A DNA stretch of 64,000 nt from an uncultured Candidatus Saccharibacteria bacterium (GTDB taxonomy: Bacteria; Patescibacteriota; Minisyncoccia; Phycocordibacterales; JAKFXT01). This document shows, piece by piece, positions 4,423 to 37,664 of the stretch (the first letter of the stretch is position 1; the number at the start of each line of letters is the position of its first letter). Location of the stretch: the NCBI GenBank assembly GCA_964385825.1, contig CAYLPX010000001.1, positions 271,959 to 335,958 of the forward strand, written 5' to 3'. The notes below the pieces were generated by a model. The model did not search any database. It saw only the letters and a list, made by a program, of their open reading frames with translations, and was not told the DNA's origin. Position numbers and translations under genes: made by a program.

Positions 4423-4662
4423 CTAATCTAAAATGGTATTTTTAAGTTTTTCGAACGACGGATAATTACTAATGTTTTGTTCCTGAATAAAAGCTGTGTA
4501 TACGGTTTCCAACTCCTCAAGTGCATTTTCAATATTAACAATCATTAGTTGATCCTCTGCAGAATCTTTAATCTCAGGTTTATCTGTTGGTTTTTTAAGA
4601 TCCTTGAGTTCCAATAGTAGTGCTTGTATTGCGTAAAATGTTGTTTTTAAAGTTATTTCCAT
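4423..4662 (-). CDS. Hypothetical small acidic protein (79 aa, from the internal Met)
   Basis: The upstream part of the 188-aa ORF overlaps tRNA-Val and repeats, so only the AT-rich C-terminal 79 codons are plausible. Confidence 0.25.
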   Translation of the reverse strand: MEITLKTTFYAIQALLLELKDLKKPTDKPEIKDSAEDQLMIVNIENALEELETVYTAFIQEQNISNYPSFEKLKNTILD

Positions 4663-4681
4663 AGTACGTTTAATTATAATG

Positions 4682-4711
4682 CAGGATTCGGTCACGCATA
4701 ATTTTTTGCTA
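4682..4711. repeat. 30-bp direct repeat, copy 1 (caggattcggtcacgcataattttttgcta)
   Basis: Identical copy at 4781-4810; the two flank a 69-bp imperfect hairpin segment. Confidence 0.8.
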
Positions 4712-4780
4712 ACTTGTCTTGTGGTCAGGGATATTTTGCGTGTCGTCACACACAAAATTCCACGACCCTGGCTCGCAAGA

Positions 4781-4866
4781 CAGGATTCGGTCACGCATAA
4801 TTTTTTGCTAAAAATTTGCGCTACCCCGCCTCGGCTCATCAGCCTCCGGCCTTCAACTCCTATACC
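4781..4866 (+). repeat. tRNA-associated GGTCAC element, copy E1 (includes 30-bp direct repeat copy 2)
   Basis: About 75% identical to 37527-37600 and 8318-8395 (ggtcacRNataattttttgctaaaaatttNNgcgaccccgNctcggc...cagcc). Confidence 0.7.
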
Positions 4867-4873
4867 GCGCACG
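4852..4873. repeat. Inverted copy of the tRNA-Val 3' end (T-loop plus acceptor 3' strand)
   Basis: ttcaactcctataccgcgcac is the exact reverse complement of 4898-4918; the 21-bp arms are separated by a 24-nt spacer holding a cccct/agggg mini-hairpin. Confidence 0.85.
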
Positions 4874-4898
4874 CGCCCCTCTAAGGGGACTGTCTTAG

Positions 4899-4971
4899 TG
4901 CGCGGTATAGGAGTTGAACCTATGACCCCAATCACGTCAAGATTGTGCTCTACCAACTGAGCTAACCGCGC
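4899..4971 (-). tRNA. tRNA-Val (anticodon GAC)
   Basis: Manual cloverleaf: acceptor GCGCGGT/ACCGCGC, D arm GCTC/GAGC, anticodon stem CAATC/GATTG with loop TTGACGT, T arm ATAGG-TTCAACT-CCTAT. Confidence 0.85.
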
Positions 4972-8279: not shown

Positions 8280-8302
8280 TATTTTAATTTAAATACTAAC
8301 AT

Positions 8303-8321
8303 GCGGAGATGGGGAGATTTG
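8303..8321. repeat. Direct repeat of the tRNA-Ser(CGA) 3' end (gcggagatggggagatttg), joined to the GGTCAC element
   Basis: Identical to 8479-8497 inside the tRNA gene. Confidence 0.85.
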
Positions 8322-8395
8322 GTCACAGATAAATTCTTTCAAAATTTTCCGCGACCCCGACTCGGCGACAAGCCCAAGCAAAGCTTGTCTTGTAT
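8318..8395 (+). repeat. tRNA-associated GGTCAC element, copy E3
   Basis: ggtcacagataaattctttcaaaattttccgcgaccccgactcggcgacaagcc aligns with E1 and E2. Confidence 0.6.
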
Positions 8396-8479
8396 ACCGC
8401 CTCCGTCTTTCAAATCTCCCCGTAACTCACACAATGATGCTTCGCTCAAATAGCATAAAGCTATTTTCGCGAATCATTG

Positions 8480-8566
8480 CGGAGATGGGGAGATTTGAAC
8501 TCCCGATGGGGTTACCCCCATGCCTGATTTCGAGTCAGGTGCCTTCAACCACTCAGCCACATCTCC
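8480..8566 (-). tRNA. tRNA-Ser (anticodon CGA), long variable arm
   Basis: Acceptor GGAGATG/CATCTCC, anticodon stem CCTGA/TCAGG with loop CTCGAAA, variable arm CATGGGGGTAACCCCATC, T arm GGGAG-TTCAAAT-CTCCC. Confidence 0.85.
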
Positions 8567-18531: not shown

Positions 18532-19155
18532 ATGTCTCCCGTTATTCGCCCACATAATCAAGGTTTTTCGCTTATTGAACTTTTAGTCGTATTGGCCATT
18601 TTAAGCCTACTTTTCACAACTGTCTTTTCGCTCCTTAACTCTTCACAAGAAAGAGCTCGTGATGCAAAGCGTATTGCTGACATGAAGCGTATTCAATTAG
18701 CCGTTGAGCGATACTATGATGACTATGGACACTACCCTGACACCAACGGGCAGATTGCTTGCTTTGATTGCGGTAGTTTTTACAATACCCCTATAGTCAA
18801 TCCCGCGGCAACTGATATTCGTGCGGCCCTCCTGCCATATCTTAAAACCCCTCCAACAGACCCCCTCCCCTGGTCATCGCGCGGCGAGGCTGGATATCTG
18901 TATTGGGGACGCAGAAGTAGTTTTCAAATTACCTCTTTTTGGAATCCTGAAAATATGTTCAACTACCCAACCAGCATGAGCTACAACTGGTGGTGGTGTA
19001 ATTCTATTTCAGCCTCTGGTCAATGTGTACAGCATCCTCTAAACACAAGTGTGGTTAATTTTGCCTTTCTTGGCGCTGGAATCTGCTCAGACGGCTTTTG
19101 TAACGAATGGGGCGATCAGTGTATTGGGGGCAGGCCCACTACCTATTGCCAATAA
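18532..19155 (+). CDS. Type IV pilin-like protein with Cys-rich C-terminal domain
   Basis: Prepilin signal HNQGFSLIELLVVLAILSLL; about 10 cysteines in the C-terminal half. Confidence 0.6.
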   Translation: MSPVIRPHNQGFSLIELLVVLAILSLLFTTVFSLLNSSQERARDAKRIADMKRIQLAVERYYDDYGHYPDTNGQIACFDCGSFYNTPIVNPAATDIRAALLPYLKTPPTDPLPWSSRGEAGYLYWGRRSSFQITSFWNPENMFNYPTSMSYNWWWCNSISASGQCVQHPLNTSVVNFAFLGAGICSDGFCNEWGDQCIGGRPTTYCQ

Positions 19156-19170
19156 CTTAAAATTTTTAAC

Positions 19171-19211
19171 CAAAAATACTCCACATTTTTGTGCCGAGGA
19201 CCGGGCTCGAA
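19171..19211. repeat. 41-bp direct repeat, copy 1 (tRNA-Phe 3'-terminal 22 nt plus 19 nt of 3' flank)
   Basis: Identical to 19324-19364. Confidence 0.9.
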
Positions 19212-19292
19212 TCTTACAGATTCAGTCCCCGTGTTTGGATTTTTTCTCGCACAAGAGTGCTTGAAAAATGCTCAAACAGGCTTCGAGCCCGG

Positions 19293-19336
19293 CACGTTTG
19301 TCTCCCAGACAAACTCCTCGCGTCAAAAATACTCCA
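19293..19336. repeat. T-arm fragment in opposite orientation (ggcttcgagcccggcac) followed by hairpin tttgtct-ccc-agacaaa
   Basis: Matches the tRNA-Phe T-loop/T-stem in the orientation opposite to the gene; the same fragment-plus-hairpin module is seen at the Arg, Gly and Ser(CGA) loci. Confidence 0.7.
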
Positions 19337-19364
19337 CATTTTTGTGCCGAGGACCGGGCTCGAA
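19324..19364. repeat. 41-bp direct repeat, copy 2 (overlaps the 3' end of the tRNA-Phe gene)
   Basis: Identical to 19171-19211. Confidence 0.9.
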
Positions 19365-19417
19365 CCGGTGACCCCTTCCTCTTCAGGGAAATGCTCTACC
19401 AACTGAGCTACCTCGGC
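19345..19417 (-). tRNA. tRNA-Phe (anticodon GAA)
   Basis: Acceptor GCCGAGG/CCTCGGC, D arm GCTC-AGTTGGTA-GAGC, anticodon loop CTGAAGA, T arm ACCGG-TTCGAGC-CCGGT. Confidence 0.85.
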
Positions 19418-19427
19418 ATATTTATTA

Positions 19428-19492
19428 TCTACCAACTGAGCCCTGCCCTGTCTGCCGACAGGCAGGCTGCAAAGGCAGGTACCTCGGCAAAT
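19428..19492 (-). pseudogene. Disrupted partial copy of the tRNA-Phe 5' half (acceptor plus D arm) split by a 39-nt GC-rich insert
   Basis: The reverse complement reads TGCCGAGGTA|CCTGCCTTTGCAGCCTGCCTGTCGGCAGACAGGGCAGGG|CTCAGTTGGTAGAT. Confidence 0.55.
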
Positions 19493-19539
19493 ACCGATTA
19501 TTTATAACAGAAAAAAAGGCTATTTGCCAGTAAAAAAAA

Positions 19540-19914
19540 CTACTGTTTAACTGGGGTTTCTGGAGCCTCTGAGGGAATTTTAACCTTATTAAGAATATTC
19601 TGAATCCCGGGGGTTGTAGGGAGTTTTAGGTTTTTTGCCCCCTGTTCAGTGGCATTAAGTGTAGAGGTAAAATTGAGCAAGGCACGCCCCGTTTCAATAA
19701 CACTATAGTAGCCAGATTGAATAATATTAAAATAGGGGCGTAATTGGTAATAACTAACTCCAAGTAGACTTACAATAATGATAACCTTAAACCAGGTATA
19801 AAAACGGGACCAGCGAACATAACTTTGGATACCTTTCAGCATCTTGTTATTTTCATCTGTCTCTTCAGCTATTTTCTCAAGCAATTGTCTTCCGTACGGA
19901 TCAGTTGGTGGCAT
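19540..19914 (-). CDS. Hypothetical membrane protein
   Basis: 124 aa with one TM helix. Confidence 0.4.
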   Translation of the reverse strand: MPPTDPYGRQLLEKIAEETDENNKMLKGIQSYVRWSRFYTWFKVIIIVSLLGVSYYQLRPYFNIIQSGYYSVIETGRALLNFTSTLNATEQGAKNLKLPTTPGIQNILNKVKIPSEAPETPVKQ

Positions 19915-19969
19915 GCTATATAGTATACCACCCTAAAAATATGGCAGAAGCAAGAATCTGTGAGTAAAA

Positions 19970-19988
19970 GGTGCTCTCGGCCGGAATC
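19970..19988. repeat. Direct repeat of the tRNA-Arg(CCT) 3' end (ggtgctctcggccggaatc)
   Basis: Identical to 20104-20122 in the tRNA gene. Confidence 0.85.
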
Positions 19989-20030
19989 TCGCCCAACGGT
20001 CGCGGGTGCTTTTCCATTTCGCTCCGCTCA

Positions 20031-20071
20031 ATAAGGAAAAGCCTTTCGATTCCGGCACATAAGCAAAGCAG
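20031..20071. repeat. T-arm fragment in opposite orientation (cctttcgattccggcac) followed by hairpin ataagcaaa-gcag-tttgcttat
   Basis: Same module as at the Gly and Phe loci. Confidence 0.7.
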
Positions 20072-20105
20072 TTTGCTTATTCAGAACACCCTCATTATAT
20101 TCGGG

Positions 20106-20177
20106 TGCTCTCGGCCGGAATCGAACCGACAATAACTCCTTAGGACGGAGCAGTTATATCCATTTAACTACGAGAGC
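20106..20177 (-). tRNA. tRNA-Arg (anticodon CCT)
   Basis: Acceptor GCTCTCG/CGAGAGC, D stem GTTA/TAAC, anticodon stem GCTCC/GGAGT with loop GTCCTAA, T arm GTCGG-TTCGATT-CCGGC. Confidence 0.75.
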
Positions 20178-20186
20178 TTGTCTGCC

Positions 20187-20236
20187 ACTATACCATCAAG
20201 TTCTCCGTAGAAAAAACACCCTCTTTAAGGGTGTTT
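20187..20236. terminator. Long hairpin (ccgtagaaaaaacaccc-tcttta-agggtgttttttctacgg), a bidirectional terminator candidate
   Basis: 17-bp stem with internal A/T tracts; lies between tRNA-Arg and the grx-like gene. Confidence 0.6.
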
Positions 20237-20267
20237 TTTCTACGGACTCAACCGATAAATTAACCAA

Positions 20268-20507
20268 TTATGCTGCTACCCCTAGAGCACTCGCAAAAGC
20301 TTGTTTATCAAAACCAACCATAATTTGCCCATCAATGTCTATTACTGGTACCCCCTTCTGTCCTGACTTGTCTACCATTTCAGTAAGCTTCTCGCGATCA
20401 GCTTGAACATTATACTCGGTATACGCAATACCATTCTCCTTCATAAAATCTTTAGCCATGTTACAAAAATGGCAAGTTGGAGTGCTGTAGATTTGGATAT
20501 TTTTCAT
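20268..20507 (-). CDS. Glutaredoxin-like / NrdH-redoxin family protein
   Basis: 79 aa, CHFC active site after beta1 (IQIYSTPTCHFC), thioredoxin-fold pattern. Confidence 0.75.
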   Translation of the reverse strand: MKNIQIYSTPTCHFCNMAKDFMKENGIAYTEYNVQADREKLTEMVDKSGQKGVPVIDIDGQIMVGFDKQAFASALGVAA

Positions 20508-20621
20508 ACGCTTTTTAAATTAGTTTTTTAAAGGAATAATATTATATCAAGAATTATAATTGAGTTCCAGTTCTCCTAGAGACACGAGTAGCATCTTCTA
20601 CCCACAAATAAGGTAAACACA

Positions 20622-20642
20622 GTAGTGCGGGTAGGGGTAATC
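20622..20642. repeat. Direct repeat of the tRNA-Gly 3' end (tagtgcgggtaggggtaatcg)
   Basis: Identical to 20766-20786. Confidence 0.85.
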
Positions 20643-20663
20643 GCCCCCCTACAGGAGCAGTAC

Positions 20664-20754
20664 AGCTTTTCCTTATGTTTGCTTGATAGGAATCAATCAA
20701 ACATAAGGAAAAGCTTTTTTGATTACCCCACACAGACAAAGCAGTTTGTCTGTT
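20664..20754. repeat. 18-bp perfect hairpin, T-arm fragment in opposite orientation (ttttgattaccccacac), and hairpin acagacaaa-gcag-tttgtctgt
   Basis: agcttttccttatgtttg / caaacataaggaaaagct is a perfect inverted repeat; the module order matches the Arg and Phe loci. Confidence 0.7.
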
Positions 20755-20767
20755 TACCACAGATTTA

Positions 20768-20838
20768 GTGCGGGTAGGGGTAATCGAAACCCCGCCTCAA
20801 CCTTGGGAAGGTCGCATTCTGCCACTAAACTATACCCG
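20768..20838 (-). tRNA. tRNA-Gly (anticodon CCC)
   Basis: Acceptor GCGGGTA/TACCCGC, anticodon stem CGACC/GGTTG with loop TTCCCAA, T arm GGGGT-TTCGATT-ACCCC. Confidence 0.8.
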
Positions 20839-20882
20839 CATTAATACGCGTATAGTTTAGCAAAATAAATACTGTCCTTAAA

Positions 20883-21443
20883 CTACCTGAAAATATCCAC
20901 AAACGAACTAAAGAAGTGGTCAAAAAAGCCTCGCACCGCCCCTTTTTGAGTAAGGCTCTCATCAGTATTGGCGAGTACCACCACAGCCACCTCCTCTCCT
21001 TGCTTCATAACATTAAACTTAGACCGGATTTCATTTTCCTGTCCCGAAATAGTTCGCAATCGTTTAAGCTCACTATTTAAAAAATCCTGACGCTTAGTAA
21101 GTTCACTGAGCTCATAAGCAACTCGCTTACTATCAACCGCCGCTTCCTCACTTTTGTGGTAGAGATTCCATGTCCCCTTGACCCCAATGAGTAAAAGAAA
21201 AAACATCAAAAAGAGTATTTTCTTAGAGTAGAGTGATTCCCTAAACTTTCTTTTTTCGTTAGGTAGGCGCATTAGAAATATTGTACCATTTGAGCTACTT
21301 TTTCCTTCTACTTGGCGTCGGTGGCCCCACAACCCCTCCGCTCCCCTTTTTTTGGTTTTTCTGCTATAGTTTCCCCATTGTCCATATACATAAACGCTTA
21401 CACGTATGCTACTCAATAAAAAACATAAGAAAGTACTGAACAC
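20883..21443 (-). CDS. Possible FtsB/DivIC-like septum-formation initiator (TM plus coiled coil); N-terminal part of the ORF is doubtful
   Basis: TM helix ILFLMFFLLLIG then a coiled-coil with Leu heptads; probable start at the internal Met (MRLPNEK). Confidence 0.35.
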   Translation of the reverse strand: MFSTFLCFLLSSIRVSVYVYGQWGNYSRKTKKRGAEGLWGHRRQVEGKSSSNGTIFLMRLPNEKRKFRESLYSKKILFLMFFLLLIGVKGTWNLYHKSEEAAVDSKRVAYELSELTKRQDFLNSELKRLRTISGQENEIRSKFNVMKQGEEVAVVVLANTDESLTQKGAVRGFFDHFFSSFVDIFR

Positions 21444-21533
21444 CTTCTGGGCTCTTTTTAGCGCCTTTATTGTTCTTAGTATGGTAGGGTTCCTCCTCCT
21501 ACCACTGTTTCAGAACTAAGTACTCCTAGAGTC

Positions 21534-23351
21534 TTAGCGTTTAAAATCTTTAGGGACATCCTCGCTCCCCGCACGCATCATTTTCAAAAATACTTCTTGT
21601 GGAATACTTACTTTGCCGTGAGCCTGCAATCGCTCTTTTCCGCGCTTCTGCTTTTCCCACAACTTTCGCTTACGAGTAATATCTCCACCATAGAGGTTTG
21701 CTGTCACGTTCTTCTTAAGCGCAGGGAGTGAACGAGATGCGATAATACGACCAAGTGCCTTACCTTGGATTTTAGTCACGAAGAGTTGCTTTGGTAATAC
21801 AGAGTAGAGTCTCACCACCGCATCCTCAGCTTCTTCTTGTGCGCGATTAGTCGGTACCACACGCGCGAACGCAGGCACTTCCTCTTCAGCTACTAACAAA
21901 TCAAGTTTGGTTACCGAAGCCTTGCGAAGTGGAAGCATTTCATAGGATAGCGAAGCATATCCCGAGGAAGCGCTTTTAACCTCATCAAAAAAGTTTCGCA
22001 TGAGTTCTCTTAGCGGCATTTCAATAACGAGTGTTGTTCGCTCCTCAAAGTCTGTCGTTTCTAAAACTGAAGCTTCATGCACATAGAGAAGTTGCATGAG
22101 ATTTCCGAGGTGCTCAGGTGGAGTGATGATAGAAACCTTAGCCCACGGCTCATATACCTCAGCTACATTTCCATGCTCAGGGAAAAGGGATGGGGTGTAG
22201 ACCATTTCTTTTTTCCCATTTTTCAGTGTCACTTCGTAAATAATAGAGGGGGTAGTAATAATAAGCTCCAAATCAAACTCACGACTAAGGCGCTCAGTAA
22301 TAATTTCGAGGTGGAGCATCCCAAGGAATCCACAACGGAAACCACGGCCAAGCGAACCTGATTGCTCTTCTTCAAAAGTGAGGGAGGAGTCAGTGAGTTT
22401 AAGACGGAGAAGCGCTTGCTTAAGCGTATTAAAATCATCTTGGCTCTCTGGATACACCGATGCCCAGACCACAGGAGCGGGTGCCATATATCCAGGGAGC
22501 GCCTCAAGCTTGCCGCGGAAAGAAAGTACCGTGTCTCCCACATTCGCCACTCCTGGCTCTTTAATACCAGTTACAATGTATCCAATTTGCCCCATACCAA
22601 TTGTTTCTTGTGGTAGTGGAGTAGGCGAAAACACCCCAACCTCAAGCGCTTGAAAACGTTTGTTTACCGCATTTAACACTAGTTCATCAAAGCGCTTAAC
22701 CTTTCCATCAAACACACGCACATACAGAATAATCCCCTTGTGATCCGAATACTGGAAATCAAACACCAGACTACGGAGCCCCTCTGTAACTCCGGCAGTT
22801 GGAGCTGGCACACGAGTGATGATAGCCTCCAGTAGTTCCGCAACTCCCTGCCCAGTTTTACCCGAGGTTTCCATAATACTTTCTTCAGTACACTGGAGAA
22901 GCTTAATGATTTCCTGCTTCACCTCCGCGATTCTAGCAAGTGGCGAATCTATTTTTGAAAGCACAGGAATGATGACAAGCCCCGCATCACGCGCCATGCG
23001 GAGTGTGGTGAGCGTTTGCGCCTGCACACCCTGAGTTGCATCAACTAAAAGGAGTGCTCCCTCAACAGCCTTCATGGCGCGCGATACTTCATATGAGAAG
23101 TCTATGTGCCCTGGAGTATCAATGAGATTGAGATTGTAATCAACACCACTCAGCTTGTGGTGCATGCAAACTGGTGTCATTTTGATAGTGATACCACGCT
23201 CACGCTCAAGATCCATAGAGTCAAGCACTTGCTCACGCATTTTGCGCTTCTCAATAGTAGCCGTAACTTCAAGCATGCGGTCAGCCAACGTAGACTTCCC
23301 ATGGTCAATGTGAGCTATGATAGAGAAATTTCGAATGAATTTCGGGTCCAT
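21534..23351 (-). CDS. lepA: Elongation factor 4 (LepA)
   Basis: GTPase motifs AHIDHGKST, DTPGH, NKID; LepA-specific C-terminal domain. Confidence 0.95.
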   Translation of the reverse strand: MDPKFIRNFSIIAHIDHGKSTLADRMLEVTATIEKRKMREQVLDSMDLERERGITIKMTPVCMHHKLSGVDYNLNLIDTPGHIDFSYEVSRAMKAVEGALLLVDATQGVQAQTLTTLRMARDAGLVIIPVLSKIDSPLARIAEVKQEIIKLLQCTEESIMETSGKTGQGVAELLEAIITRVPAPTAGVTEGLRSLVFDFQYSDHKGIILYVRVFDGKVKRFDELVLNAVNKRFQALEVGVFSPTPLPQETIGMGQIGYIVTGIKEPGVANVGDTVLSFRGKLEALPGYMAPAPVVWASVYPESQDDFNTLKQALLRLKLTDSSLTFEEEQSGSLGRGFRCGFLGMLHLEIITERLSREFDLELIITTPSIIYEVTLKNGKKEMVYTPSLFPEHGNVAEVYEPWAKVSIITPPEHLGNLMQLLYVHEASVLETTDFEERTTLVIEMPLRELMRNFFDEVKSASSGYASLSYEMLPLRKASVTKLDLLVAEEEVPAFARVVPTNRAQEEAEDAVVRLYSVLPKQLFVTKIQGKALGRIIASRSLPALKKNVTANLYGGDITRKRKLWEKQKRGKERLQAHGKVSIPQEVFLKMMRAGSEDVPKDFKR

Positions 23352-29715: not shown

Positions 29716-29889
29716 AATTTCTTATAGCTAAAATGTAGACAAATTTTATTTTAGTATCCTAACATTGTGGGTAGTTGTGGATAAAAGGGTGTATTAATGC
29801 TTATATGGCTTATAATGAACCAAGTAAGCATAAGCGCATGCAATGCTTGCGGATAAAAAGCCACAGTTGATATTTGAGAGACAAAATCG

Positions 29890-29972
29890 TACCGGTGACG
29901 GGATTTGAACCCGCAATCCAGCCAGGAGCTAGTTCCGTAAACTAGTGCGTATACCAATTTCGCCACACCGGC
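29890..29972 (-). tRNA. Class II (long variable arm) tRNA, Leu-like body; anticodon reads ACG in my manual fold; identity uncertain
   Basis: Acceptor GCCGGTG/CACCGGT (G1-U72), D arm GCG-AAATTGGTATA-CGC, anticodon stem CTAGT/ACTAG with loop TTACGGA, 14-nt variable arm, T arm GCGGG-TTCAAAT-CCCGT, discriminator A. Confidence 0.6.
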
Positions 29973-37220: not shown

Positions 37221-37359
37221 GGATCCCTCCTTGGAAAAGGGGTTAGAAAAAACGAAATGAGCCCTAAGCTCCGAAATATATTATATCATATATATACAAA
37301 AAAGCAAGTCATCACGACCTGCTCGGGAATTCAGAAAATCTCATTTCGCTAAGGTATTT

Positions 37360-37379
37360 GCGGAGACGGAGAGATTTGG
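37360..37379. repeat. Imperfect copy of a tRNA-Ser 3' end (gcggagacggagagatttgg) joined to a GGTCAGGAATATTTT motif
   Basis: 17/19 match to 37412-37430 (tRNA-Ser GGA) and to the Ser(CGA) 3' end; ggtcaggaatatttt also occurs at 4723-4737 as ggtcagggatatttt. Confidence 0.7.
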
Positions 37380-37413
37380 TCAGGAATATTTTAGGATCCC
37401 TCCCATACAGAGC

Positions 37414-37498
37414 GGAGGCGGCGAGATTTGAACTCGCGAAACCTTTCGGTTTACACGCTTTCCAAGCGTGCGCACTAGACCACTATGCGACGCCTCCG
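37414..37498 (-). tRNA. tRNA-Ser (anticodon GGA), long variable arm
   Basis: Acceptor GGAGGCG/CGCCTCC, D stem GCAT/GTGC, anticodon stem CACGC/GCGTG with loop TTGGAAA, variable arm TAAACCGAAAGGTTTC, T arm GCGAG-TTCAAAT-CTCGC. Confidence 0.8.
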
Positions 37499-37526
37499 CT
37501 CTGTAAAGGATTTGAAGAATCGTACT

Positions 37527-37600
37527 ATGCGCACTAGGTCACAGATAATTTTTTGCTAAAAATTTCTGCGACCCCGTCTCGGCTCGTCAGCCTCCGACTC
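37527..37600 (+). repeat. tRNA-associated GGTCAC element, copy E2
   Basis: ggtcacagataattttttgctaaaaatttctgcgaccccgtctcggctcgtcagcctccg is about 85% identical to E1; preceded by a scrambled copy of the tRNA-Ser D-arm region (actatgcgcactag). Confidence 0.7.
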
Positions 37601-37664
37601 TTCGGGTTTTACATTCAACCCGAAGCACTATACGACGTCTCCAGTCTGGCAAAGATAACAGAAA

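Follow-up and report, generated by a model that had tools for sequence, protein, structure and literature searches.

Short folded elements behind tRNA genes of Patescibacteria: an apparently undescribed family that may insert at the T-loop

A stretch of 64,000 nucleotides (nt) from an uncultured Candidatus Saccharibacteria bacterium (contig CAYLPX010000001.1), hereafter the window, carries directly behind its gene for tRNA-Phe a folded element bordered by two copies of the tRNA's own 3' end. The element belongs to what is apparently an undescribed family, whose members are 110-170 nt long and lie directly behind tRNA genes of Patescibacteria. The data show a conserved unit, folding as a single strand and positioned at the T-loop and 3' end of a tRNA gene, that is gained or lost between relatives and has no protein of its own. 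We have filed the elements as a strongly divergent, new form of tRNA-targeting insertion element. The account that we rank first, at a confidence somewhat short of even, is that they are protein-less insertion elements, centred on the T-loop sequence TTC|GA, that act as a folded single strand.

The tRNA genes were called with ARAGORN and Rfam and repeats with a repeat finder, significance being judged against shuffles. The core of the Phe-type element is termed S1, and R1 is a covariance model of that core (P1, P2, rUACUG and P3), built with the window sequence excluded. The tRNA-Phe locus, read in the sense of the tRNA, contains the following features.

19428..19492, minus strand: partial duplicate of tRNA-Phe on its upstream side, broken between nt 1-9 and nt 10-23
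19345..19417, minus strand: intact tRNA-Phe(GAA), called by ARAGORN and by Rfam (tRNA, 69.3 bits); T54 is at 19364 and A73 at 19345, and CCA is not encoded
19324..19364, minus strand: proximal copy of the 41-nt repeat (repeat finder), made up of T54-A73, C74 and the trailer CAAAAATGTGGAGTATTTTTG
19315..19323, minus strand: anti-acceptor ACGCGAGGA, matching the acceptor 3' strand imperfectly in reverse complement
19296..19314, minus strand: hairpin Hp, GTTTGTCT-GGG-AGACAAAC, at the boundary between the complement of the acceptor and that of the T-arm
19282..19295, minus strand: anti-T GTGCCGGGCTCGAA, the reverse complement of the T-loop and the T-stem 3' strand
19229..19280, minus strand: P2, the long irregular hairpin of the S1 core, CCUGUUUG-AGC-AUUUUU...AAAAAAU-C-CAAACACGG
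19224..19228, minus strand: conserved junction, here GGACU followed by G (family consensus rUACUG)
19209..19223, minus strand: P3, a 5-bp hairpin, GAAUC-UGUAA-GAUUC, that covaries across the family
19171..19211, minus strand: distal copy of the 41-nt repeat, its first bases serving as the 3' strands of P3 and P1
19196..19296, minus strand: match to R1 (S1 core), 87.7 bits, E=1.2e-22

The 41-nt direct repeat is exact, and at up to 3 mismatches it is matched twice in the window, against no match in 100 shuffles. It comprises, in the sense of the tRNA, the 20 nt from T54 to A73, then C74, then a 20-nt trailer of the form A5-loop-T5. The copies are 112 nt apart, or 153 nt from repeat start to repeat start. 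Anti-T forms the 5' strand of helix P1 and terminates in the junction GAA. The S1 core begins 59 nt past tRNA-Phe, and no terminator is predicted in the window between the gene and the element. The upstream partial copy consists of GCCGAGGTA at 19480-19488 and GCTCAGTTGGTAGA at 19428-19441, with a 38-nt GC-rich hairpin (19442-19479) between them, and it lies upstream of the -10-like box TAATAAATAT.

Much of this arrangement had been seen in an earlier note on the locus, whose intact tRNA-Phe, exact 41-bp repeat of the tRNA 3' end with its flank, intervening segment of about 110 bp, inverted T-arm fragment (11 nt exact, 19282-19292) and hairpin within that segment are all present. Its division of the repeat into 22 nt of tRNA and 19 nt of flank is off by 1-2 nt, and the GC-rich insert that it recognized in the 5' partial copy is one nucleotide shorter than the 39 nt it gave. 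It had also raised the possibility that the repeats were assembly artefacts. This can be set aside, because two independent Joint Genome Institute (JGI) assemblies from other samples, L001 and L002, are 100% identical to the window across 18900-21600. Four further contigs of the same species, L003-L006, end at positions equivalent to 19401, 19443, 20634 and 20796, that is, in tRNA-Phe, the upstream hairpin, the Gly repeat and tRNA-Gly. These breaks may reflect fragmentation of short-read assemblies by the elements, or they may reflect hidden heterogeneity in the population.

The same build is found behind five tRNA genes of the window: Phe, Arg(cct), Gly(ccc), Ser(cga) and Val. The order, in the sense of the tRNA, is the tRNA, a short trailer, the anti-acceptor (complementary to the acceptor 3' strand and N73/C74), Hp (variable in sequence), anti-T (T-stem 3' strand and T-loop in reverse complement, with ...TCGAA at the end), the core, and a direct copy that runs from about T54-G57 to 1-3 nt beyond the discriminator. 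The inverted copy pairs with the direct copy in the minimum-free-energy folds of all the window elements. The four sisters of the Phe element are the following.

19970..20103, minus strand: tRNA-Arg(cct) element, scaffold S2 (R1 21.4 bits, E=1e-3); direct repeat 19970-19988 = 20104-20122, anti-acceptor 20083-20091, Hp 20061-20078, anti-T 20045-20058, P2 20008-20043, P3 19989-20004
20623..20765, minus strand: tRNA-Gly(ccc) element (R1 39.1 bits, E=9e-9); direct repeat 20623-20643 = 20766-20786, Hp 20733-20752, anti-T 20721-20732, P2 20664-20715, GUACUG and P3 20644-20663
8303..8478, minus strand: tRNA-Ser(cga) element; direct repeat 8303-8320 = 8479-8496, anti-T 8409-8421, scaffold S4 8321-8408
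4769..4897, minus strand: tRNA-Val element; scaffold S4 4789-4851

R1 has no significant match in the window besides those to the Phe, Gly and Arg elements. The Val element repeats 21 nt of the tRNA 3' end in inverted orientation without a mismatch (4852-4872). Its distal tRNA-like end, GAATCCTGTCTTGCGAGCCA at 4769-4788, derives from another tRNA and carries CCA, and a 31-nt piece of scaffold and distal end occurs twice on the minus strand, at 4781-4811 and 4682-4712, which suggests recombination between elements of different tRNAs.

The core has a conserved, covarying structure. In a structural alignment of 50 S1 cores, paired cells amount to 92%. The covariation score reaches 0.347; shuffles give 0.125, none of 500 attaining the observed value, and sliding the pairing partners gives at most 0.10. 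Compensatory changes affect 4 of the 5 pairs of P3, 6 of the 8 of P1 and 2 of the 8 of P2. The junction rUACUG and the UGUAA loop, neither of which was in the search pattern, are conserved in the 50 cores. The fold has two three-way junctions, the first uniting the acceptor-like stem, Hp and the T-stem, and the second, which lies in the opened T-loop and branches at C56|R57, uniting P1, P2 and P3. In paired columns there are 52 cells with G-T and 27 with A-C, which hints, if modestly, that it is the tRNA-sense strand that folds.

The arms are specific to the tRNA that they follow. Over 9 positions, anti-T is complementary to its own tRNA at 8.84 on average against 6.70 for other tRNAs, and the anti-acceptor at 7.63 against 6.48; a perfect anti-acceptor (9/9) is found in 11 of 38 elements but in only 10 of 1317 mismatched pairings. 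The sequence of the 5' arm is genuinely the reverse complement, T-loop nt 57-60 and N73-C74 included, and therefore not the remnant of a tRNA 5' half. A duplicate tRNA disrupted by insertion into its T-loop was considered and rejected on the same ground, as the 5' arm contains no tRNA 5'-half sequence. Identity between the repeats begins at T54-G57, most often at C56, and in most cases stops 1-3 nt beyond the discriminator, the outliers being +6, +10 and +21, with the Phe repeat the longest; 7 of 35 distal-copy matches keep identity through the T-stem part only. Proximal and distal trailers usually differ. About 15 of 38 elements, by our own reading of predicted folds, have a strong hairpin and T-run between the tRNA and the anti-acceptor, often extending as a perfect palindrome into the acceptor strand.

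A GCGAAGC-like motif, placed in an A-tract/T-tract loop right behind the tRNA (GAGCGAAGC, ACGAAGTGA), occurs in element-bearing trailers of loci L012-L060 and at 8440-8460 of the window. It accompanies 15 of 64 element-bearing tRNAs and 2 of 44 bare tRNAs, and is found also in the P2 tips of some cores. The GCGAAGC mini-hairpin was considered as a hallmark of single-stranded DNA, but the enrichment is weak and we place no reliance on it.

A scan of one genome per GTDB species with a 21-nt signature of the Phe-type core found S1 in 48 loci, all in metagenome-assembled genomes of Patescibacteria, and 47 of the 55 copies sit 25-250 nt downstream of a tRNA on the same strand. The tRNAs so accompanied are those for Arg, Glu, Phe, Pro, Ser, Gly, Ile, Leu, Trp, Tyr, Lys, Val, Ala, Met and Gln, so that at least 15 isoacceptor types carry S1-type elements. 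The window's Phe element is itself of this type, judging by its match to R1 and its position behind a same-strand tRNA to which its arms are complementary. Among the tRNAs of the fetched loci, a sample biased toward element-rich regions, 71 of 107 are followed by inverted and/or direct copies of their own end. R1 gives 76 matches across 52 loci, uniform in size and borders, and no kilobase-scale relative bearing the S1 core was found among the 48 loci. Unrelated-looking scaffolds, S2, S4 and S5, take the identical slot between anti-T and the direct copy, and there are tandem arrays with mixed scaffold types. The variable tips of P2 are 0.61 identical between elements of different tRNAs within one genome (several at 0.85-1.0), 0.40 between elements of the same isotype in other genomes and 0.35 otherwise, a pattern of within-genome similarity that the arms do not share.

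The distribution among relatives is patchy. Syntenic loci were found by anchoring on LepA. In L008 and L009, whose LepA proteins are 74% identical to that of the window, tRNA-Gly, tRNA-Arg and tRNA-Phe are syntenic with their counterparts in the window and bare downstream, and R1 matches nothing in either. In L010 (LepA 71%), tRNA-Phe is followed by one element, tRNA-Arg by two in tandem and tRNA-Glu by two. A search for metagenome relatives through a 124-amino-acid neighbour protein yielded a single locus, from another relative, L060, and here too an element with the same core stands behind tRNA-Phe. The T-loop of that tRNA has GAAU where the window has GAGC, and the inverted arm has AUUC where the window has GCUC. 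Behind tRNA-Arg(cct) of L060 (1535-2440), about 770 nt with small open reading frames precede the inverted copy, S2 core and direct copy. This insert may be a cargo-carrying form of the element. One of the frames encodes 100 amino acids (1803-2105), and neither it nor the other small frames beside elements has an informative match in Pfam or PHROGs.

The earlier note had recommended looking in related genomes for empty sites, and those at Phe in L008 and L009, set beside the filled or tandem sites of L010 and L060, support its suggestion of a miniature tRNA-targeting element with the duplicated tRNA 3' end as borders. It had also held that covariation would point to a structured RNA and away from insertion. 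The covariation is present, but so is variation in presence and absence, and therefore the elements are both structured and inserted.

Related arrangements occur on the 5' side of tRNA genes. Partial copies of tRNA 5' ends are split, at the D-loop or between nt 9 and 10, by GC-rich hairpins that end in ..GGGGCAGG or ..GGGCAGG, as at 19442-19479 of the window, L009 ~705, L012 ~4585, L029 ~1210 and L049 ~23. Several 5'-side arrangements mirror the 3' elements, in the order distal direct copy, scaffold, inverted copy, -10-like box and tRNA; examples, all upstream of the -10 box, are those of Ser(cga) in L037, Lys in L029 and Ser(cga) in L010.

How might such units arise? If the elements are protein-less insertion elements, then the 41-bp repeat of the Phe locus would represent the two borders of one unit, of a family specific to the tRNA genes of Patescibacteria. 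The unit would consist of tRNA nt 54/57 to about 74 with a short trailer hairpin; the reverse complement of the tRNA end, that is, the anti-acceptor, the variable hairpin and an anti-T-arm ending ...TCGAA; and the core of P2, rUACUG and P3 with its UGUAA loop, for which other scaffold classes may substitute. With the unit centred on the T-loop TTC|GA, the functional gene would end in the proximal copy and a second 3' end would lie past the core, hence the direct repeat. We infer that the unit is mobile, that DNA rather than RNA is its active form, and that the point of insertion is in the T-loop. The tRNA-sense strand would fold so that its tRNA-derived strand is fully paired, in imitation of the double-stranded target, and would branch at C56|R57 and 65|66. 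A putative trans-acting enzyme would recognize this folded single strand and insert, excise or copy the unit, by a logic like that of the attP hairpins of CTXphi and IMEX elements, integron attC sites or the miniature derivatives of IS200/IS605.

Several observations favour this account. One build recurs behind five tRNAs of the window and at least 15 tRNA types elsewhere, R1 recovers the Phe, Gly and Arg elements of the window and matches nothing in L008 or L009, relatives differ in having bare or filled sites, tandem arrays exist, P2 tips are most alike within a genome, and the scanned frames of the window encode no integrase, transposase or reverse transcriptase. Single-strand integration of the CTXphi type leaves the order site, body, inverted site, spacer, site; the order around the presumed cargo of L060 matches it and therefore argues for an insertion element. 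The distal copy often decays, as would be expected of a by-product of insertion and not of a selected RNA end. The hairpin and T-run of about 15 of the 38 elements fit a terminator supplied by the element and accord poorly with obligatory co-transcription. We rank insertion first also because the scaffolds are interchangeable and mirror-image arrangements lie on the 5' side, upstream of the promoter.

Other observations weigh against it. No integrase, transposase or reverse transcriptase is present among the approximately 46 open reading frames of the window scanned against Pfam, so that the enzyme has no candidate nearby. Filled/empty polymorphism within a species was not found, and a scan of metagenomes for an empty Phe site gave 0 matches. 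The retention of the Phe element in three diverged genomes, with anti-T tracking the T-loop, suggests selection, hence function. The likeness of P2 tips within genomes could be due to gene conversion instead of spread. Simple transposition does not readily account for arms that match more than 15 different tRNAs: either each lineage is bound to its tRNA, or some step re-templates the arms. The conserved junction nucleotides and the GNRA-like loop are what one would commonly see in functional RNAs. Finally, the strand signal from G-T and A-C cells is modest and does not separate RNA from single-stranded DNA.

A bolder version of insertion is conceivable, one to which we would give perhaps three chances in ten were it put to a vote of our own, in which the elements form a new, protein-less and 'programmable' class of tRNA-homing elements, with interchangeable catalytic or protein-recruiting cores and with insertion, excision or exchange of 3' halves guided by pairing. 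Here the T-loop bond C56|R57 would be brought to a three-way junction by arms that pair with the acceptor 3' strand and the two T-arm halves of a single tRNA or tRNA gene, and the cores might be new ribozyme classes or guide scaffolds for an enzyme. That the elements are something categorically new, whether pairing-guided elements or new ribozyme classes, is similarly a possibility that we hold only tentatively.

Perhaps instead the elements are structured RNAs of the cell, the main rival and a possibility that deserves real weight, though we rank it second. The element would be co-transcribed as the trailer of its tRNA, or released by processing of the RNase P or RNase Z kind, and would fold into a tRNA-like acceptor/T helix with an opened T-loop bearing the three-way-junction core. 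Such an RNA could serve in maturation or stability of the tRNA 3' end, as a decoy, or as a new ribozyme or aptamer, and the patchiness would be attributable to loss through recombination between the repeats. The strong covariation and high level of pairing, the conserved rUACUG junction and UGUAA loop, and the tolerance of the tRNA-sense strand for G-U pairs all suit this explanation, as do arms complementary to the element's own tRNA, the compensating change among the orthologous Phe elements of the window, L010 and L060, the gap behind tRNA-Phe with no predicted terminator, and a branch point placed exactly at C56|R57 in a hammerhead-like topology. It fares worse with the terminator-like hairpins at the 5' side of many elements, with close relatives that lack the elements, and with analogues upstream of the promoter's -10 box. 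Moreover, the distal copy is identical to the tRNA, which is more than complementarity to the arm would need, and decays in older copies; unrelated scaffolds interchange at one position; and no Rfam family matches. Insertion and a co-transcribed RNA are not mutually exclusive.

A role for RNA in the spread of the elements is unlikely. They would then resemble short interspersed elements (SINEs), retrozymes or viroids, copied by a reverse transcriptase encoded elsewhere from a unit-length RNA with a tRNA-like 3' end or with a tRNA complement like a primer-binding site. Re-entry beside a tRNA gene, by target priming or homologous recombination, would yield repeats of variable length that start in the T-loop and end near nt 74, and the variable repeat ends are of the kind that target-primed or recombinational entry would produce. 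The primer-binding site of retroviruses is the complement of a tRNA 3' end, and the inverted arm likewise complements the last 20 or so nt of the tRNA; the unit could also form a rod-like circle. The arm, however, is broken by a hairpin, there is no poly-A or other hallmark of retro-elements, viral contigs contain no matches, and the window encodes no reverse transcriptase. Group II introns are reported to be absent from Patescibacteria (PMC13011429), which also tells against this route.

It is quite improbable that the elements are by-products of mutation, although at the Phe locus taken by itself this explanation fits well. The tRNA end would be copied backwards after a fold-back (quasipalindrome) template switch at the trailer hairpin, and forwards once more after the strand switched back at the palindromic TTCGAA of the T-loop, to give copy, inverted copy and copy; a spacer landing at the centre would later stabilize the long palindrome. 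Indeed, the Phe repeat contains the entire trailer hairpin, the inverted copy starts directly after it with the T-loop TCGA as centre of symmetry, and several loci have perfect palindromes from acceptor through trailer. What template switching leaves unexplained are the conserved, covarying cores, the junction nucleotides, Hp, the usual difference between proximal and distal trailers and the enrichment of GCGAAGC-like trailers.

Least of all do we believe that the repeats are attL and attR of a tyrosine-integrase island or prophage decayed or deleted to about 110 bp, as the earlier note had it, for although such islands classically leave a direct repeat that spans the T-loop to the tRNA 3' end, which the Phe repeat resembles, and although L060 holds a larger insert with open reading frames, the 112-nt insert is accompanied by no integrase in the window and no kilobase-scale mobile DNA, its content is a conserved, covarying structure and not random remains, the family extends with uniform size and borders over the 76 R1 matches, at least 15 tRNA types and 48 loci, none with a kilobase-scale relative of the same core, and phage and plasmid records show no similarity.

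Comparison with known sequences and systems returned little. Rfam 15 at gathering score found only tRNAs and RNase P in the window, and permissive scans of 18800-21100, 4600-4900 and 8290-8480 gave chance-level matches only, ruling out a known RNA family. The S1 and S4 patterns had 0 matches in viral contigs, as had blastn against GenBank phage and PLSDB plasmid records, and full-text literature searches found no description of elements at the tails of tRNAs, the nearest being group I introns in the anticodon loops of tRNAs of Patescibacteria. A hammerhead ribozyme, permuted forms included (the core is defined in PMC10085705), is rejected, as the CUGAnGA/GAAA core is absent and the junctions are GAA and rUACUG instead; the string CUGAUGA is limited to the variable loop of two S4 copies. 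An omega-RNA-like scaffold of the TnpB/IscB kind with a flanking guide was considered for S4 and obtained no support. The IS110 bridge RNA is excluded by guide geometry, both arms being antisense to one strand, and by the lack of a recombinase. The class of MITEs (miniature inverted-repeat transposable elements) is excluded because the ends differ with each tRNA, the repeats being 18-41 nt of tRNA sequence with no shared terminal inverted repeats, and integron attC sites because the arms are tRNA sequence without the GTTRRRY consensus (IntI was not searched for outside the window). As regards the IS200/IS605 miniatures known as PATEs, the elements have hairpins near both ends and a junction at ..TTC|, and within the window, to which that search was confined, there is no TnpA/TnpB partner.

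Genes for FtsZ, FtsA, TsaD and GroEL, the neighbours of LepA and a class A RNase P RNA place the window on a chromosome of Patescibacteria (Paceibacterota/Parcubacteria). Two further tRNA genes deserve mention. Intact tRNA-Ser(gga) (37412-37497, minus strand) is flanked, in the region 37350-37645, by the halves of a degenerate second tRNA-Ser, with a 5' piece GGAGACGTCGTATAGTG at 37626-37642 and a 3' piece AAATCTCTCCGTCTCCGC at 37360-37377. The acceptor strands of these two pieces pair mutually, and neither pairs with the live gene. A scaffold of the S4 type (37537-37599) is inserted at the D-loop of the upstream piece. The tRNA-Arg(acg) called by ARAGORN at 29889-29972 (minus strand) is 84 nt long, with a long variable arm and A73, and its D-arm and acceptor resemble those of tRNA-Leu (GCCGGTGTGGCGAAATTGGTATACGCAC...). 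A tRNA of class II shape with an Arg anticodon is unusual and might bear on the decoding of CGN codons in the lineage.

Patescibacteria have tiny, streamlined genomes, and yet in some lineages most tRNA genes carry an appendage of 110-170 nt derived from their own 3' end. Elements of this kind, if mobile, target tRNA genes without encoding a protein and preserve the gene, and their arms look re-targetable, with possible bearing on how site-specific elements switch targets and on tools for guided insertion. If they are RNAs, they represent several new conserved classes tied to tRNA biology, in a phylum that is not easily cultured. Either way, they break assemblies at tRNA genes, and the tRNA fragments that they leave could pass in annotation for integrase att sites or pseudogenes.

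Among known systems, the hammerhead ribozyme is similar in topology only. It too has a three-way junction that branches at UUC|G of a substrate-like strand, with two target-binding arms around a hairpin (permuted forms are covered in PMC10085705), but the elements have neither its CUGAnGA/GAAA core nor an Rfam match to it. The tRNA-like RNAs, such as the tRNA-like domain of tmRNA, viral 3' tRNA-like structures, mascRNA and the bacterial Y RNA YrlA, have in common with the elements an acceptor-like stem stacked on a T-stem, with a 3' strand identical to that of a real tRNA. In the elements, however, an opened T-loop is paired throughout, N73 and C74 are also paired with the 5' strand, there is one element for each tRNA type, and the Rfam tRNA model fails to match.

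Integrase islands and prophages in tRNA genes share with the elements a 3' repeat that starts in the T-loop, an intact gene and tandem occupancy. They differ in that the elements are 110-170 nt long, lack an integrase and have an inverted copy of the target as part of a conserved fold, and in that one family of element scaffold uses at least 15 tRNA types. PATEs and MITEs are likewise small, protein-less and multi-copy, with subterminal hairpins, and by analogy the elements would depend on a helper in trans and be inserted behind ..TTC on the lagging-strand template. The elements have neither terminal inverted repeats of the MITE type nor a short fixed target duplication, and their arms are tRNA-specific; the link to IS200/IS605, as to IMEX, may be one of logic only. 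There is a parallel in form with the attP of CTXphi and IMEX and with attC. There, too, an inverted and a direct copy of the target, folded together, imitate the duplex site; after integration the site is followed by the body, an inverted site, a spacer and a second site; conservation is greater in structure than in sequence; and one of the strands bears extra-helical features. As regards single-strand integration by IMEX and CTXphi, it is the topology alone that matches. The elements have no consensus of a XerCD site or of R and L boxes; their target is the T-arm and acceptor of a tRNA in place of dif or attI, and their spacer is a conserved three-way junction.

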